Below are positions 1,576 through 59,536 of a stretch of DNA of 64,000 nt, one piece after another; position 1 is the first letter of the stretch, and the number at the start of each line of letters is the position of its first letter. Below the pieces are notes generated by a model. The model did not search any database, was not told the origin of the DNA, and worked only from the letters and a program-made list of their open reading frames with translations. Location of the stretch: contig CALRFD010000001.1 in NCBI GenBank assembly GCA_943356485.1, positions 137,716 through 201,715 of the forward strand. The letters run 5' to 3'. This DNA is from Patescibacteria group bacterium (GTDB lineage: Bacteria; Patescibacteriota; Microgenomatia; Daviesbacterales; UBA10151). Made by a program: the position numbers and the translations under genes.

Positions 1576-2739
1576 TTAGTTAGATAGAGCAAGGTTTGGC
1601 TCTGCCTGTAGTTTTAACGGATCAATGGGTTTTTGGAAAAATCCTCTTGAGGCAATCATGGCGGCGTTGTCGGTACAAAGTTCTGGTGGCGGTAGGTGTA
1701 ATTTAACTTTTAACCCTGCCTCGCCGGCAGGCAGGTTTTCACTTTGAATTTTTAACTTGCGAACCAGGAACTGGTTCGCTGCGACGCCACCTGCTATCAT
1801 AATATGCTCAACCTTGTATTTTTGTGCTGCTGCAATAGTCTTTTTAACTAACACGTCAACGATCGCCTGTTCGATTCCGGCTGCCAAATCGCATTTCACC
1901 TCCGAGGAGTCAAAGCCCACCTCGGAGGTGGAGAGTAAATTTGCTACAGCAGTTTTTAACCCGGAAAAAGAAAAATCAAAATCTCTTGAGTTAATCATTG
2001 GACGGGGAAGGTTGAACCTCAAGGCGTCGCCTTGCGAGGCTAATTTAGATATTTCCGGCCCGCCAGGATAAGGCAAACCTAGCAGCCTGGCACATTTATC
2101 AAAACACTCACCTGCTGCATCATCGCGGGTACCACCAAGATATTCATAATTTTGCTCGTCTTTAAATAAAACTAAATCAGTATGACCACCGGAAACCAGC
2201 AGGCCGATGCAGGGAAAGTTAGGTAAGTGACTAGTCGCTAGAGTCAAGAGACTAGGCGTTTTTTTTCTTGACCCTTGACCCTTGACCCTTGACCCTGTCT
2301 CAATCCAATTTGCCCAGAAATGTCCGAGTAAATGATTTACCGGAATTAGTGGCTTATTCCAGGTTAGCGCCAGAGTCTTGGCTGTTTCAACTCCAACTAG
2401 AAGCGACCCGATAAGTCCCGGCCCATAAGTTACTGCAATAGCGTCAATTTTAGAAGCGTAAAGGGGAAAGCGTAAAGCCTGCCTGCCGGCAAGGCAGGGG
2501 GAAAGTTCAGGGAAAGCTTGCTCCAAAGCTTCATTTATGACTGGAATAATGCTTTTGATTTGCTCCCGGGCTGCCTGTTCCGGAATGATCCCGCCGTATT
2601 TAGCCTGCATCTGGGCAGATGAGGCGATAACATTGGATAAAATATGTACCTGCCTGCCGGTAGGCAGGTACGATCCTCGCTTTTCCAGCACTGCCGCTGC
2701 AGTTTCATCACAACTGGTTTCGATGCCTAAAATTATCAT
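1576..2739 (-). CDS. tsaD: tRNA N6-adenosine threonylcarbamoyltransferase TsaD (Kae1/YgjD family). Carries three short in-frame insertions.
   Basis: MIILGIETSCDETAAAVL, LVSGGHTDLV, DDAAGECFDKCARLLGLPYPGGPEISKLA and FSFSGLKTAV match the TsaD core. Extra segments relative to E. coli TsaD coincide with palindromic/SSR DNA (see findings). Confidence 0.9.
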   Translation of the reverse strand: MIILGIETSCDETAAAVLEKRGSYLPTGRQVHILSNVIASSAQMQAKYGGIIPEQAAREQIKSIIPVINEALEQAFPELSPCLAGRQALRFPLYASKIDAIAVTYGPGLIGSLLVGVETAKTLALTWNKPLIPVNHLLGHFWANWIETGSRVKGQGSRKKTPSLLTLATSHLPNFPCIGLLVSGGHTDLVLFKDEQNYEYLGGTRDDAAGECFDKCARLLGLPYPGGPEISKLASQGDALRFNLPRPMINSRDFDFSFSGLKTAVANLLSTSEVGFDSSEVKCDLAAGIEQAIVDVLVKKTIAAAQKYKVEHIMIAGGVAANQFLVRKLKIQSENLPAGEAGLKVKLHLPPPELCTDNAAMIASRGFFQKPIDPLKLQAEPNLALSN

Positions 2740-12032: not shown

Positions 12033-14373
<2,341 letters not shown>

Positions 14374-14415: not shown

Positions 14416-17400
14416 TTAAATTGGGGAAGGGGTGGGAATCTCTGTTAAATCAATGCCTCGTGATTTAGCTCTTTCGACTACTTGTTGACCATACTCAGGT
14501 CGATCGACTCTTTTATATCTATCAACTGCTTCTTGATAAGCTTGTCTAGCTTTATCCGGATCTCCCCTTTGTATATAAAGCTCTGCGAGAGCAACATGAC
14601 TGCTGATTGGAAAGTATGGGTCATGTTCTTGACCATCTTCAAACGTCTGGATTGCCTCTTTAATTTGTCCGTTACCTTGATAAAGTCTTGCTAACTGGTA
14701 AGAAGAAACATAATAAGCATCTGGCTCCGAAGTTTTCAATCCCGCATAGATACCAATAAGCTCTGCGCGAATTTGTTTTGCTTTTTCAGTATCTCCACTT
14801 TTTTCGTAGAGCTCACAAATTCTGTAGTAATCAGTTTTCAAATAGCGATTATCACGATCTTTTACCTGTTCTAATAAGGATATTGCCTCATTTATTTTCC
14901 CACTTTTTTCATAAATATCTACCAATTTGAATACATTCGCTGTTCCATATTCTCTTGTCCAAAAACTTTTATCAGTTTCCTCTCCCTGAAGCATAACATT
15001 GTTTGCTTGATCTGCTTGTCCAGCTTTTTCATAAATAGAAGCGAGTTGAACATACCCACCACTTGCCACTTCGGGATTATAGAATTTAGGATCTTTAGTT
15101 TCTGCTTCAAGACTAGTATCAATTGCCTCTGGTAATTTACCAGCTTCTGCGTAAAGATTAACAAGTTGAGAATAAGCTCCAGTGTAGGAAGCCTCCCAGA
15201 ATTTTTGACTTTTAGCCTTTGCTTTCTCACATATTGCAATAGCTTTATCAACTTGATTATTTCTGGCATATAAACTAGCTAATTGCCCATAAACAGGGCC
15301 ATAATTTCGATTCCAAAACAACTCAGGATTAGCTACAGCCACTTCTTCATATAAACTAATTGTTTTTTCATCTTCGCCTCTATAAACTCGAGCTAAAGTA
15401 GTAATATTATTATCTTCTTGGAAAAATATTTCAGGAGAACCAATTCTTACTTCTTCTAACATAGCCACTGCTTGGATTGGATCTTTTTGCTCACCATTTA
15501 AATATAATCCTGAAGCATACTGATAAACGCTTTTAGCGTAAAATCTTTTTTCTTTAGTCTTTATTTCATTGGCAAATTCAACCGCTTTATTTAAAACAGT
15601 AGGATCTTTTTTGCTCTGTTCCAAATAAAGCTCCATCAGTTTCTGGAAAGGAGGAGAATAGTCGGCTGCATCCCAAAATTGTGTTTCTTGAACTTTGCTA
15701 AACTGTTCATATACCTCTATCTTTTTCTCTGTTTGATCATCGTATGATGAAACTATCTCCCATACATTTGATGATTCTGAATAAAAAAGTGTAGGATTTT
15801 CGTTTAGTGCTTGCTCCATTAAAGACAAAGCACGTGCTCTATCTTGTTCAGCCACCTCTCCTGTTTTATTATCTGCTTGATACCTAATGTGTCTTGCTAG
15901 ATCATGAATCTTTTTATAATAGGCCTGTGGATTTTTTGCCTTCGTTTCTTCAAAGATTTGTAAAGCTCTATCAACTTCTCTTTCATATGCATACATTAAA
16001 GCATGGTCAGTACTCATACCTTCCCAATAAAGAGTTGGCCGCTCTTTTTTAGTTCTCTCTAGAAAGGCTAACCCCTCTTCTCTTGGCAATAAACTTGCAT
16101 ATCCGGTATATGCTCTAGTATCGTATGGGCTCATTTCGAGATGTTTTCTAAATAGATAAATACCGACATCTTTATATGCAGCGTTGATAAATTGAGCAGT
16201 ATTATTAGTGAACGAAGAATTAATAAAAAGATAACCATCTTTGTCAGGAGCAGTTATTAAGTGAGGATAGGGAATATTTGCTCTCCATATTTCTTGTTGT
16301 CCTGTATAAGGATTGATTCTAATAATTAAACGTGGAGTTTCTTTTATCTCTTGTAGCTGTTGTGGGTTTGTGATTACTTGAGAGATATTTTCAGTCATAT
16401 ACATAAGAATACGGGCATCTGTAGGGATAAATCGGGAATTAGCTGTAGCTAACTTAGTGTATTTCAATGCAGATTCAACTTCTGGGTCTTTAATGCCAGG
16501 ATTATTTTTTCTAATACGTTCAACCAACTCATCATCAGTTTTATCCTCTAAACCATATCTATTTCCAAAATTTGCATCAATAACTAACTTATTTCCACTA
16601 GGGAGATCACCTTCAAAGCAAACATGACCCTCGGTTCTATTATCCAAGATTTCTTTAACAGAATTTGCCCGTGCATTTACACCTAAATATTTTGATATTG
16701 CCAAAAGCACATTGACTTTACCTGCACAAATAGCATCTTCGTTTTCAAGCACCTCTGTTAAATTGGTGGAACCTTGATGAGGAAAAATACGATCTACCTT
16801 ATTAGCTATAGGAACAAAGAGGGCTTGCATTTGTCTATCTAAATTAGCAAGCCTATCTTTCTTTTCATCTTCACTTAAATCTGAAGCTCGTATTTCTTGA
16901 GCTTGTTGCTGTAAAGTAGAAACTCTTGATTTTGTGCCAACAAGATCTATAGCTTCATCTGTATCAGTCTCTCTATTAAAAGAGCTTTCAATTGCTGGCC
17001 GACACCTTTCTTTAAACTGACCCTCTAATTCCTGGATTTTTTGTTTCTTATCGTCATCTGATAATGAGGAGTTACTGACTTGAGCAATTTCGTCTCTAAG
17101 TTTATTGAAATCTTCGGCAAGACCATCCCTTTCGATTATTTGTGTATATGCAGGGTCTGCTTCTCTTCCCTCTAAACAGGCAGTCAGTTTTCTAAATTTG
17201 CCATTAAGACCAAGCGGGCGTTGCACTCTATCCAACACTCTTACTGCATTGAGGGTAAATGCTGTTTCTAAATATTCATCTATTAAATTATCAGCTAGCG
17301 TTGCTCCTTGGCGAGGTTCTAAGTGAGAAGAAATAAGCCTTACTGCTCTTGGTTCTTGAATCAATTTACCAAGTCTTTGAGCGTAACTCTCATGAGTAGA

Positions 17401-23171: not shown

Positions 23172-23177
23172 GTCTCT

Positions 23178-23243
23178 TCCCACCCTTCGGGTGGTTTAGC
23201 CCACCTTGCCGGTGAGGCAGACTTCGCACCTATTCTTTTTTGG
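23178..23243 (+). repeat. Copy A of a ~66-bp two-hairpin + U-tract element, about 90% identical to 59471-59536.
   Basis: CCACCCttcgGGTGG (UUCG tetraloop hairpin), TTGCCggtgaGGCAG hairpin, then CTTTTTTGG. Confidence 0.7.
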
Positions 23244-23436
23244 GAAATAGGATAGAAAACTATCTCACCTTGGGGGTCTTAGACTCTTAAGGGAGAGCCG
23301 ATTCGGCTGAGCTCATGGCCTAAGCCCTCAGGCTCAGACTCAAGTGAGGTGTAGAATACCTGCCGGCAGGCAAGATACAATCATGCGAACTGATTGTATC
23401 AAGCACGGAATAACATTTTGAAATAAGCTCTAAATT

Positions 23437-45221: not shown

Positions 45222-46578
45222 AGAGAGAGAAAGTTCAGTCAGAGGAGTAAATGAAAATTTGTCGGATTTTTATAAATCCTGGGGAGCATTTGATATCTTT
45301 GAGAAAACGCTGGATCAGCTACCTCCGGACTGGTTAAAAATCTTAAACATTGCCAGAAATCTACTAGACGGGAAAAGAATTCCTGGAGTCAACCTTCCTT
45401 CAACTGTCATGGCTCTGGTAGAGAAGGATCAGGAAATAGTTTTTGAAAAAAGATATATGACCAGAAAATGGCAGCAAAAATCCATCCTACCAGCCACCAG
45501 CATTGATGTTAAAAATCTGGAAGATTTATCTCAATTGCCTAAAGTATTGCCAGCCCACCTCCTGCTGCAGGGCGAAGCGCCGGAAATCTTTGCTTATCGG
45601 GCTCTGACTCATTCTCTACCAATAGCCGAGATGCAAAAACCAAGAGCAATAACAGAAGAAAAATCAGAAACCTTGATGGAACTTGTACCAAAGGCAAGAG
45701 AAAGAACTTCTATGCGGCAAAGAGTCTATGCTTTAATGGATGTTTCTCTCTCAATGAAATCTAATTACAAATTAATCTTTTCCAAAGCTGTCATGTTGGC
45801 TTATTTGGCAAAAGCCCACGAGGAAGGATCAGAGGTTTATTTCCGAGCTTTTGCCGGCAGTGTCGGGGATCTGGTAGCCTGCATCTCTCCTGAGGATTTT
45901 CCTGCTTTGGCAAAGAGGATCTTAGGATACAGGGTCTATCATGGTACTGATATTAGGTATGCTCTCACAACTGCAGTTGAAGATATTTCTAGGATGGAGA
46001 GATTAACTGACAGTAGAAGAGCTAAAACTGAGGTTTTGCTAATATCAGATGGTGAAAGCTATACCCCTATACCCCTGATGCCTAAAAATATAGCTTTGCA
46101 TACCCTGCATTTAGTCGGAGGAGGCGAGGAGTTTATATTAGATAAAGAGTTAAGGCAAATGAGTAACACTTACACCAGGATAGATACAGGAAATTTAATG
46201 CTGCCAAGTATTTCAGAGGAGGCTTGGTTTATGTTTGAGGAGATTGAGAGGCTGGAAGATCAAACAAAAGGTCTGACAGATTCAGAGATGAAATACGATA
46301 GAAGACTGCAGCAAAGAGTTGAAGCTATAAGAAAGCATACAGAAGCATATAGAAAAATCGATTCCAGCGAGAAAGTTAGGGAAAATGCCGGCAGAGCGCA
46401 AAAACTGCATGATAAAGTTTCCTTAGAAAAAGCAGAGGAAAGATTAAAGAAAAAATTAGAATTAATAAGGTATTTTATAAAAAAACTTATGCAAAAAATT
46501 AAGTCTTTCCGATTGCCTAAATTTGACAGAAAGAAAGTATTAGCCGGGAGTTTATTTGATTTTAGAATAAAGGACTAG
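45214..46578 (+). CDS. von Willebrand factor A (vWA) domain protein, ViaA-like partner of the MoxR ATPase.
   Basis: MIDAS motif in RVYALMDVSLSM (DxSxS), then a Thr and LLISDGES. Overlaps the MoxR gene by 8 nt (coupled). Confidence 0.65.
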   Translation: MAKERESSVRGVNENLSDFYKSWGAFDIFEKTLDQLPPDWLKILNIARNLLDGKRIPGVNLPSTVMALVEKDQEIVFEKRYMTRKWQQKSILPATSIDVKNLEDLSQLPKVLPAHLLLQGEAPEIFAYRALTHSLPIAEMQKPRAITEEKSETLMELVPKARERTSMRQRVYALMDVSLSMKSNYKLIFSKAVMLAYLAKAHEEGSEVYFRAFAGSVGDLVACISPEDFPALAKRILGYRVYHGTDIRYALTTAVEDISRMERLTDSRRAKTEVLLISDGESYTPIPLMPKNIALHTLHLVGGGEEFILDKELRQMSNTYTRIDTGNLMLPSISEEAWFMFEEIERLEDQTKGLTDSEMKYDRRLQQRVEAIRKHTEAYRKIDSSEKVRENAGRAQKLHDKVSLEKAEERLKKKLELIRYFIKKLMQKIKSFRLPKFDRKKVLAGSLFDFRIKD

Positions 46579-47521
46579 GATTACCTATTACCTTAACATT
46601 ATTTGTAGTTTGATTTGCTACTTCTTCCAAAGTTATTCCTTTTAACTCTGCAATCAGCCTTGCAATTTCTAAAACTGCAGATGGTTCGTTTCTCTGCCCC
46701 CGTTTGGATTGGAGAGGTAGGAAGGGGCAATCAGTCTCCAGGCAAATTTTATCCAAAGGCAGAATTTTAACAGCCTCTCTTAAGTATTCATTTTTAGGAT
46801 AGGTTAGAGTTCCTCCAAATGACACTAAAACATTAGACATTTTGAGTATTTGGTGAGTGGTTCTGGTCAAACCACTGTAGCAGTGGAAAATAGCCGGGTA
46901 ATCACCTATTAAATTTAACGTTTCATCCCAGGCTTCGCAGTTTTCTGGATTTTTAGAGCGGTCATCCCGGCAGTGAACTATTAAAGGTAAGTCTAGCTTT
47001 TTAGCCAGATCAATCTGGGCTTGAAAAAGTCTTCTTTGTAGCTCTTTTTCGTGATTGTGAGAAAGTTTACCGGTTCGACTGAGCTCACCGTCGAAGTCCT
47101 GAACTTGTTTCAGGGTGGCAATCTCTGTTTCTCTAAAGTAATAATCCAGCCCGCATTCCCCAACAGCGATAACCTTTTTCGGATTTTCTCTATAAATTTT
47201 TTCCAGTTGAGTAATGTCTTCGTTGACATTTTTGCAACGATCGTCGTATTTTTGTCCAGGTAAGGAATAATTTATAGCCTCATGCGGGTGAATACCGATT
47301 GTTGAATAAACCTTCAATCCTGGAATGTCTGACAGTTTACCGGTTCGACTGAGCTCACCGCCGAAGTCCTGAGCTTGTCGAAGGGCTTTTTTCGATGATT
47401 CAATATCTACCCCAACATTTATAATGGTAGTTACACTGGCATCAAGAGATCGTTTTATAACTTCATCAAAATCCGGTTTAAAACTGTCCCAATATAAATG
47501 GGCATGGGTGTCTATCAGCAT
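46562..47521 (-). CDS. tatD: TatD-family metal-dependent deoxyribonuclease. Carries two in-frame ~48-bp repeat insertions.
   Basis: MLIDTHAHLYW, GIHPHEA, AVGECGLDYY, LIVHCRDD and the C-terminal DCPFLPL. Duplicated inserts encode QDFGGELSRTGKLS and QDFDGELSRTGKLS. Confidence 0.85.
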   Translation of the reverse strand: MLIDTHAHLYWDSFKPDFDEVIKRSLDASVTTIINVGVDIESSKKALRQAQDFGGELSRTGKLSDIPGLKVYSTIGIHPHEAINYSLPGQKYDDRCKNVNEDITQLEKIYRENPKKVIAVGECGLDYYFRETEIATLKQVQDFDGELSRTGKLSHNHEKELQRRLFQAQIDLAKKLDLPLIVHCRDDRSKNPENCEAWDETLNLIGDYPAIFHCYSGLTRTTHQILKMSNVLVSFGGTLTYPKNEYLREAVKILPLDKICLETDCPFLPLQSKRGQRNEPSAVLEIARLIAELKGITLEEVANQTTNNVKVIGNPSPLF

Positions 47522-59395: not shown

Positions 59396-59470
59396 ATTTT
59401 ACTTTGCAAGTATAAAGTAAAATAAGGATTTCTATATTATAGATCACAAACGCCGATAATTTCCCAAATT

Positions 59471-59536
59471 TTCCACCCTTCGGGTGGATTAGCCCGCCTT
59501 GCCGTCGAGGCAGGCTTTGCACCTTTCCTTTTTTGA
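59471..59536 (+). repeat. Copy B of the ~66-bp two-hairpin + U-tract element, followed by a CCACCTCC...GGATTAGGTAG box at 59542-59573.
   Basis: CCACCCttcgGGTGG, TTGCCgtcgaGGCAG, CCTTTTTTG. About 90% identical to 23178-23243. Confidence 0.7.

Follow-up and report, generated by a model that had tools for sequence, protein, structure and literature searches.

We report that a tatD gene in a 64-kb stretch of a patescibacterial genome (contig CALRFD010000001.1, positions 137,716–201,715; hereafter the window, meaning the whole stretch) contains two near-identical repeats that are read in frame, each built around a 27-nt unit of a repeat family found across bacterial phyla. The explanation we favor, at a probability of roughly 60%, is that a unit of this cross-phylum family came to lie in frame in tatD at one site (site 1) and that the second site (site 2) is a copy of the site-1 segment. 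The mobile-looking unit can be written (C)GGTTCGACTGAGCTCACCG-YCG-AAGTC, or as the pattern CGGTTCGACTGAGCTCACCG(YCG)AAGTC; we refer to the 19-mer GGTTCGACTGAGCTCACCG as its core. The host, judged from homologs, belongs to Candidatus Daviesbacteria, within the candidate phyla radiation (CPR, or Patescibacteria).

Two in-frame repeats in an intact tatD gene

The window holds exactly two copies of the 43-mer TTTACCGGTTCGACTGAGCTCACCGYCGAAGTCCTGARCTTGT, at 47066–47108 and 47336–47378 (plus strand), and a match arose in none of 100 shuffles. This confirms the two near-identical in-frame segments, 270 bp apart, that had been claimed from the letters of this DNA alone (the sequence-only reading). Ungapped extension yielded two segments of 63 nt, 270 nt apart, with 86% identity (54/63) and a core identity of 41/43. 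The site-1 segment (47323–47385, plus strand) consists of the 27-nt unit and flanks coding for ALRQAQ and GKLSDI, and the site-2 segment (47053–47115, plus strand) of the unit and flanks coding for TLKQVQ and GKLSHN. The units themselves lie at 47342–47368 (GGTTCGACTGAGCTCACCGCCGAAGTC; DFGGELSRT on the coding strand, residues 52–60) and at 47072–47098 (GGTTCGACTGAGCTCACCGTCGAAGTC; DFDGELSRT, residues 142–150), both given on the plus strand, and differ at one of 27 positions. The two copies share a reading frame and encode QAQDFGGELSRTGKLS (residues 49–64) and QVQDFDGELSRTGKLS (residues 139–154), within the wider peptides ..ALRQAQDFGGELSRTGKLSDI.. (residues 46–66) and ..TLKQVQDFDGELSRTGKLSHN.. 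(residues 136–156).

The gene that hosts both copies is intact (46562–47521, minus strand; 319 aa; open reading frame [ORF] with Pfam support). Its product (P0121 in our protein set) matches TatD_DNase (PF01026) with E = 8.4e-63 and 212.5 bits against a cut-off of 27, over profile positions 1–249 of 253. All family-invariant TatD residues are kept, including H6, H8, E122, H183, H213, and D264, with metal ligands among them. An AlphaFold2 (AF2) model built with a 120-sequence alignment reached a predicted local distance difference test score (pLDDT) of 81 and a predicted TM score (pTM) of 0.85; single-sequence AF2 gave an unusable pLDDT of 44. The model resembles the crystal structures 4p5u, 1j6o, and 2gzx (TM 0.80–0.83, Foldseek), and the predicted fold is the (beta/alpha)8 barrel with His/Glu/Asp metal ligands that defines the TatD family.

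Ortholog alignment and modeling of the TIM barrel had been proposed in the sequence-only reading as a way to see whether the inserts fall in loops. In the model both sit in low-confidence loops of an otherwise confident barrel. Insert 1 lies between helix 40–51 and strand 70–75, with pLDDT <50 at residues 53–58, and insert 2 between strand 117–126/helix 131–138 and helix 155–176, with pLDDT <50 at residues 134–149. By standard TIM-barrel topology, the predicted alpha2–beta3 position of insert 1 places it on the non-catalytic face, and the predicted beta4–alpha4 position of insert 2 places it on the catalytic face. The length of the insert-2 region is highly variable among the 119 Daviesbacteria orthologs described below.

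Across both repeats, tatD has exactly the same DNA sequence in two assemblies of other samples, so that three assemblies in all carry it. One of these (L137) has no differences from the window in tatD, and the other (L132) has two, both outside the repeats. In the latter, a strain from the European Nucleotide Archive (ENA; protein P0001), two adjacent bases in codon 238 (window ∼46808–46810) differ, giving T238R. This pair is the only difference in 20.9 kb, which suggests that the populations are near-clonal across samples.

The sequence-only reading also described the element as near-palindromic. There is indeed a stem, TTCGAC/GTCGAA, of 6 bp (5/6 paired at site 1) with a 10-nt loop, around TGAGCTCA, but it is weak: The folding energies of the tatD repeats were not clearly better than those of shuffles (z from −1.9 to +0.05), and a repeat search reported no inverted repeats.

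A clean 27-nt indel at site 1

We aligned the window protein with 119 Daviesbacteria TatD proteins (60%–72% identity) and compared the DNA of four of these orthologs (P0003, P0004, P0043, and P0037) at site 1. Relative to the window, P0003 and P0004 show a single clean, codon-aligned gap of 27 nt (nine codons) between CAG and GGT. The extra 27 nt in the window gene are GACTTCGGCGGTGAGCTCAGTCGAACC, the reverse complement of which is GGTTCGACTGAGCTCACCG+CCGAAGTC. Most orthologs read ALRQAQ-GKLANIPGL.. at this site, without the nine residues DFGGELSRT. A diverged 27-nt piece, GGTGAGCG(T/A)AGTCGAACC, is present in P0043 and P0037, several further orthologs read ..GE(R/Q)S(R/Q)T.., and a third group has the minimal loop AAELESDKIKFY. 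The site-2 peptide was found in none of the 119 orthologs at the corresponding position.

The alignment agrees with the earlier view that the inserts are extra, in frame, and placed between conserved TatD blocks, and it revises their extent. An element of ∼48 nt had been proposed; the clean nine-codon gap shows that the variable unit is 27 nt, and most Daviesbacteria orthologs have what is left of the 48-mer (QAQ... and ...GKLS) at site 1. The same reading had held that conservation of the peptides in orthologs without any DNA repeat would speak against an insertion. Such conservation is seen for the flanks and not for the nine-residue core. A reading in which the site-1 flanks are native and nothing is mobile was dropped, given the cross-phylum distribution of the 19-mer core and the clean 27-nt indel.

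A repeat family spanning many phyla

To place the unit in a wider context, we searched contigs of one genome per species (596 Gb, both strands) for the 19-mer core. More than 118 loci were found against ∼4 expected by chance (our own arithmetic, assuming even base use). The family statistics that follow are drawn from the matches listed. Among these, the core was present in at least 10 phyla. Its bacterial hosts include Planctomycetota, Chloroflexi/Anaerolineae, Verrucomicrobia, Kiritimatiellaeota, Omnitrophota, WOR-3, delta- and gammaproteobacterial metagenome-assembled genomes (MAGs), and cyanobacteria (Leptolyngbya PCC 7375), and the CPR hosts include Saccharibacteria, Davies-, Curtiss-, Levy-, Uhr-, and Magasanikbacteria, and others. 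Both window units match the cross-phylum consensus perfectly, and the unit of P0043 is decayed.

An alignment of 119 copies among the matches listed revealed sharp ends. Position −1 is C in 97% of the copies. The core is followed by AAGTC in 68 copies (the 24-nt form) and by YCGAAGTC in 23 (the 27-nt form, mostly CPR), and conservation drops to ≤45% on both sides beyond the unit ends. The flanks of family copies are otherwise unrelated and frequently self-complementary. Intergenic copies showed no bias in orientation relative to neighboring genes, which points to an element at the DNA level, not to a strand-specific RNA.

Several known classes of sequence were considered as a source of the unit. 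A structured RNA was rejected, with no Rfam family found and folding not better than shuffles: At the gathering score, Rfam gave no match in the window or in 18 unit-bearing loci, there was no match over tatD at E ≤ 1, and the only match at the deltaproteobacterial locus L003 was a spurious lncRNA (E = 0.45). Hammerhead or other ribozyme cores were set aside since CUGAGCU is incompatible with CUGANGA. We also rejected a tRNA-fragment origin; by eye, GGTTCGACT is partly T-arm-like and GAGCTCAGTCG partly D-arm-like, and there is no closing stem. A phage or plasmid origin was rejected on the basis of three databases: The unit had no match among INPHARED phages, just two marginal matches of 21–24 nt among PLSDB plasmids, and six matches in IMG/VR, so that it is not notably viral. 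No description of the unit sequence or its peptides was found in the literature that could be searched, an absence that is no proof of novelty. As a separate observation, a HEARO (IscB omega-type) RNA (L045:5727–5949, 158.8 bits) lies ∼2.6 kb from two unit copies, with no evident link.

Filled and empty hairpins within one genome

Variation in the presence of the unit was also seen within a single genome, a deltaproteobacterial MAG (CAWEAR..) sampled over 224 kb (loci L003, L006, L010, L016, L022, L033, L064, L073, L082, L093, L101, and others). In this MAG, the unit occupies a fixed position in 13 hairpins, and 25 related ones lack it (filled and empty hairpins, respectively). The filled hairpins have the arrangement stem - GTTTCnGAAAC - unit - stem', and the same three stem families account for most of both kinds (12 of 13 filled, 15 of 25 empty). 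This is the same pattern as at tatD site 1, where a filled site is set against unit-less orthologs. The hairpins themselves are terminator-like repeats with at least three different stems and a shared loop, GTTTCnGAAAC; in about one-third of those sampled, a 24-nt unit is inserted directly after ..AAAC.

In-frame copies in other proteins

With a length of eight or nine codons, the unit can be read through in most frames: The core is open in four of six (GSTELT, VRLSSP, GELSRT, and VSSVE), and the remaining two contain TGA. Long ORFs use all four open frames. Since the unit is 24 or 27 nt long, the downstream frame is always kept, and this frame-preserving length probably explains how the unit survives in gene-dense genomes.

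At loci with a GC content of ≤0.5, 24 of 72 copies among the matches listed fall inside ORFs of at least 120 aa. Pfam-supported examples are the GTPase domain of IF-2, which carries ..SEDFDGELSRTVAQ.. in the frame also used in TatD, the RadA protein encoded in a Curtissbacteria MAG, and an adenylation module of a nonribosomal peptide synthetase (NRPS). Copies are also present in an ORF that we read as AddB-like from its sequence, without a Pfam scan (L066), and in linkers of sensor kinases, likewise identified without a Pfam scan.

Some inserts extend beyond the unit. In IF-2 (L104:2343) and RadA (L051:1957), in-frame stretches of ∼30–40 residues are made of the unit together with related modules, with the IF-2 insert falling between motifs G1 and G3 of the GTPase domain. 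At three other loci (L129, L130, and L131), the composite ..TTCGACTYCGCTCAMCATGACC + unit + ..GGGTCATAT directly adjoins the start codon of a gene that is divergently oriented, where it could lengthen annotated N-termini.

Relation between the two tatD copies

The sequence around the units bears on how the two tatD copies arose. Outside the 27-nt unit, they share 15 of 19 nt on one side and 20 of 26 nt on the other. The flank coding for GKLS(D/H)(I/N) is native TatD sequence at site 1, where unit-less orthologs read GGTAAACTAGCAAAT.., and among 120 other family members from the matches listed the best agreement with it was 12/19, compared with 15/19 between the tatD copies. A 25-mer joining this flank to the core (TTTACC+core) had no match in 241 million metagenome records. 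On the other side, the ALRQAQ-coding flank CCTGAGCTTGTCGAAGGG is conserved in orthologs and is identical to a repeat module, CCCTTCGACAAGCTCAGG, in unrelated MAGs (L040 and L043). A 32-mer of the core with YCGAAGTCCTGAG is rare, with three metagenome matches, all intergenic. At site 2, the upstream flank CCCTGAAACAAGTTCAG agrees with the empty site 1 of P0004 at 16 of 17 positions, and the downstream flank GGTAAACT is identical to site 1. At site 1 the flanks are TatD-native, and no copies other than the two in tatD share them; site 2 therefore looks like a secondary copy of the site-1 segment made within the gene. Separately, we noted that the ALRQAQ-coding module forms an inverted pair, CCCTTCGACAAGCTCAGGACGAACGG ... 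CCGTTCGTGGTGAGCCTGTCGAACC, at L040:1506–1660, an arrangement like that of a REPIN (a doublet of repetitive extragenic palindromes [REPs] forming a hairpin).

The explanation we favor would run as follows. The family is one of very small interspersed repeats that come in forms of 24 nt and 27 nt and behave as present-or-absent modules in hairpins, intergenic DNA, and genes, and the unit itself may be mobile. Given its eight or nine codons and four stop-free frames, most insertions into genes would add only a short peptide and would be retained where the protein tolerates it; in TatD, the tolerated places would be two disordered surface loops of the TIM barrel. At site 1, the unit would have entered between codons Q51 and G61 of an older ALRQAQ/GKL(A/S) sequence, which itself resembles another module of the same repeat world. 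Site 2, unique to this species, would most likely be a secondary in-frame ectopic copy of the unit with ∼18 nt of TatD-native flank per side, so that the direction of copying would be from site 1 to site 2. The inserts would probably be translated passengers, selfish or neutral, and not functional motifs.

Several observations weigh against this explanation. The units differ at one of 27 positions and the flanks at ∼8 of 36, which fits less well with a single old duplication; together with the 16/17 agreement to the empty site of P0004, these numbers leave later gene conversion or two recent targeted insertions as alternatives. Orthologs with a unit at site 1 are scattered across a rough neighbor-joining (NJ) tree, so that the site would either have been targeted repeatedly or have received the unit long ago, with many later losses. 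No target-site duplication was seen beyond an ambiguous single C or G, and there are no terminal inverted repeats. No link to a transposase or to a REP-associated tyrosine transposase (RAYT) turned up, and the ORFs of the 64-kb window were not scanned for Y1 transposases. Finally, the window holds just two copies of the unit and one doubtful relic. The latter is a possible degenerate third family member in intergenic DNA (23290–23347, plus strand; ..GATTCGGCTGAGCTCATGG..), with a core match containing three mismatches at 23302–23318 and a weak hit (E = 0.23) in an nhmmer search with a profile of 27-nt-form copies.

Two of these observations, the difference in divergence between units and flanks and the scatter of unit-bearing orthologs, are what would be expected if there had been two separate, recent, site-specific insertions, with site 2 already an older duplicate of the short site-1 sequence ..CAAGTTCAG/GGTAAACT.. 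and the unit recognizing that duplicated sequence or structure. The match of the site-2 flanks to the empty site 1 of P0004 (16/17 plus 8/8), the fixed position of the unit in the deltaproteobacterial hairpins, and the perfect consensus match of both window units beside the decayed unit of P0043 point the same way. However, this scenario needs an extra, earlier duplication of the short form, for which no ortholog shows evidence, and no common target motif is evident (TTTACC^ in tatD vs. GAAAC^ in the hairpins); we regard it as a serious but rather unlikely alternative. A view akin to that of the sequence-only reading, that the copies are independent insertions of a longer (∼48–63 nt), genome-specific variant from master copies elsewhere in the genome, we consider improbable. 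The family is mosaic, as at L067/L129, L130, and L131, where the core is followed by TCGAAGTCCTGAG.. and then by ..GTCGAA.GGG, and in other phyla the right-hand flank CCTGAGCTTGTCGAAGGG occurs as a repeat module; both points suit a longer element. The left flank GGTAAACTnTCnnAC, however, is native TatD sequence in unit-less orthologs and occurs in none of 120 other family members among the matches listed; the window contains no other copy of the longer form, and metagenome contigs gave no match. With that flank private to the tatD pair, independent insertion of a 48-bp element is probably not what happened.

It is very unlikely, in our judgment, that we are dealing not with selfish DNA but with a peptide or an mRNA hairpin that is functional and selected (as a binding loop, or as a signal for translation or an RNase). 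Neither of the two positions at which the copies differ disturbs the frame, the T/C difference leaves the stem paired as G-U in the mRNA strand, and the gene is intact in three assemblies. Yet the same DNA occurs in noncoding hairpins and in four reading frames of unrelated proteins, and the identity across phyla is at the DNA level. Folding no better than that of shuffles, the lack of an Rfam match at E ≤ 1, and the absence of strand bias relative to neighboring genes also speak against function; the two loops are predicted to lie on opposite faces of the barrel, and site 2 is absent in 119 of 120 orthologs. Least credible of all is an assembly artifact, with a repeat that was collapsed or made chimeric. 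The sequence does come from a metagenome assembly, and short GC-rich repeats can mislead assemblers, but two additional assemblies from different samples give the identical gene, which makes such an error unlikely; moreover, two core positions and the flanks distinguish the copies, and the frame and all catalytic residues are intact. The possibility of an artifact, raised in the sequence-only reading, thus found no support.

Comparison with known repeat systems

Our favored explanation, a small repeat unit carried in frame and copied within tatD, invites comparison with described families. Rickettsia palindromic elements (RPEs) are selfish repeats found in frame in unrelated housekeeping genes, compatible with the protein fold and sometimes present twice per ORF (PMC10969869; PMC3733652). 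The tatD copies are alike in being in frame, in fold-compatible loops, and twice in one ORF. RPEs differ in that they are ∼100–150 bp long, restricted to Rickettsia, and marked by a CGTC end tag, whereas the tatD unit is 24/27 nt (segment 63 nt), has no end tag, and occurs in many phyla.

REPs are short (20–40 bp) stem-loops known from several phyla, mostly extragenic and also found inside known protein genes (PMC3733652; PMC3116915). The unit resembles REPs and REPINs as a short repeat that occurs in several phyla in both extragenic and intragenic positions. An unpaired GTAG (or CGTC) tetranucleotide at one end is a criterion for REPs (PMC3733652). The unit has no GTAG, and any CGTC in it is internal, as part of the stem in the 27-nt form. 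That stem has 6 bp (5/6 at site 1) and a 10-nt loop, with folding z-scores of −1.9 to +0.05. REP families share the tetranucleotide and a general form across phyla, whereas our unit shares 24–27 nt of sequence. Unlike REPs or REPINs, it is inserted into other hairpin repeats, as in the deltaproteobacterial MAG.

The small dispersed repeats (SDRs) of Nostocaceae, a 2008 subject of Elhai et al. to which PMC3116915 and PMC5861425 refer, are reportedly 21–27 nt long, of noncoding size, present or absent at a given site, and often nested in repeats or hairpins. Their insertion context is specific, with the highly iterated palindrome HIP1 serving for SDR5, and they have been reported only in Nostocaceae (PMC5861425). 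Compared by description, SDRs are the closest to our unit in size and behavior, given its 27-nt indel relative to orthologs and its filled and empty hairpins. Unlike SDRs, the unit is cross-phylum and frequently intragenic.

In AT-rich mitochondrial genomes, mobile GC clusters (such as those of yeast var1) are GC-rich, palindromic, optional between strains, and tolerated in coding sequence; they are organellar, ∼30–50 bp long, and lineage-specific. The tatD unit has no sequence relation to them. The MITE class (miniature inverted-repeat transposable elements, such as Correia/NEMIS, ERIC, and BOX) comprises non-autonomous repeats that can form in-frame fusions with host ORFs (PMC10969869). MITEs exceed 100 bp and have terminal inverted repeats and a target-site duplication, whereas the unit has neither, and its junctions share at most one ambiguous base. 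The unit is thus functionally like RPEs and intragenic REPs, yet it is not a member of the RPE, REP, MITE, or lineage-restricted families as these are defined.

Other repeats in the window

The sequence-only reading had suggested that in-frame palindromic insertion is a genome-wide phenomenon. This suggestion holds up: Other GC-rich palindromes lie in frame in the window, in a TsaD gene and a PfkB-family kinase gene, and the family of the tatD unit extends far beyond this genome. The TsaD gene (1576–2739, minus strand) has two in-frame GC-rich palindromes of another family, at 2649–2668 and ∼2470–2500, with CCTGCCTACCGGCAGGCAGG translated as ..YLPTGRQV.. and CCTGCCTTGCCGGCAGGCAGG as ..PCLAGRQAL..; TsaD matches Pfam in two separate stretches. 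The PfkB-family kinase gene (13354–14373, minus strand) has an in-frame insert at ∼13593–13690 with a GC peak of 76% (50-nt window) that contains a perfect palindrome, CCTGCCTGCCGGCAGGCAGG, and its Pfam match is also in two stretches.

A third GC-rich repeat of 66 nt (..CCACCCTTCGGGTGG..CCTTGCCG..GAGGCAG..) is present as two intergenic copies, at 23177–23242 and 59470–59535, with 86% identity. The former adjoins the degenerate relative of the tatD unit at 23290–23347. At 14883–15157, three 35-nt segments with 69%–100% identity are spaced exactly 120 nt apart, probably reflecting a 40-residue protein repeat.

Implications

In-frame selfish repeats are known for Rickettsia, and intragenic REPs are known as well; those elements are larger and lineage-specific. 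The unit described here measures 24–27 nt, has sharp ends and the same sequence in at least 10 phyla, and is a present-or-absent module in hairpins and in essential proteins (TatD, the G domain of IF-2, and RadA). It is conceivable, if on balance doubtful, that in this unit we see an active "nano-element," specific for a site or structure and broad in its host range, that a conserved machinery moves within and between genomes of many phyla. Such movement would explain why 24–27 bases are identical from CPR to Planctomycetes. If this were true, the length of eight or nine codons and the four open frames would be an adaptation to the coding sequences of gene-dense genomes, and the nano-element would be a general source of loop insertions in bacterial proteins.

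If mobile at all, the unit would rank with the smallest mobile DNA units described and with the most widely spread, and it would readily account for many unexplained loop insertions, as well as for odd "hypothetical proteins," in environmental genomes, those of CPR included. For annotators, its signature can serve to mask spurious ORFs and to recognize insert-bearing orthologs. It also provides a concrete sequence with which to hunt, by phyletic profiling, for the responsible enzyme.

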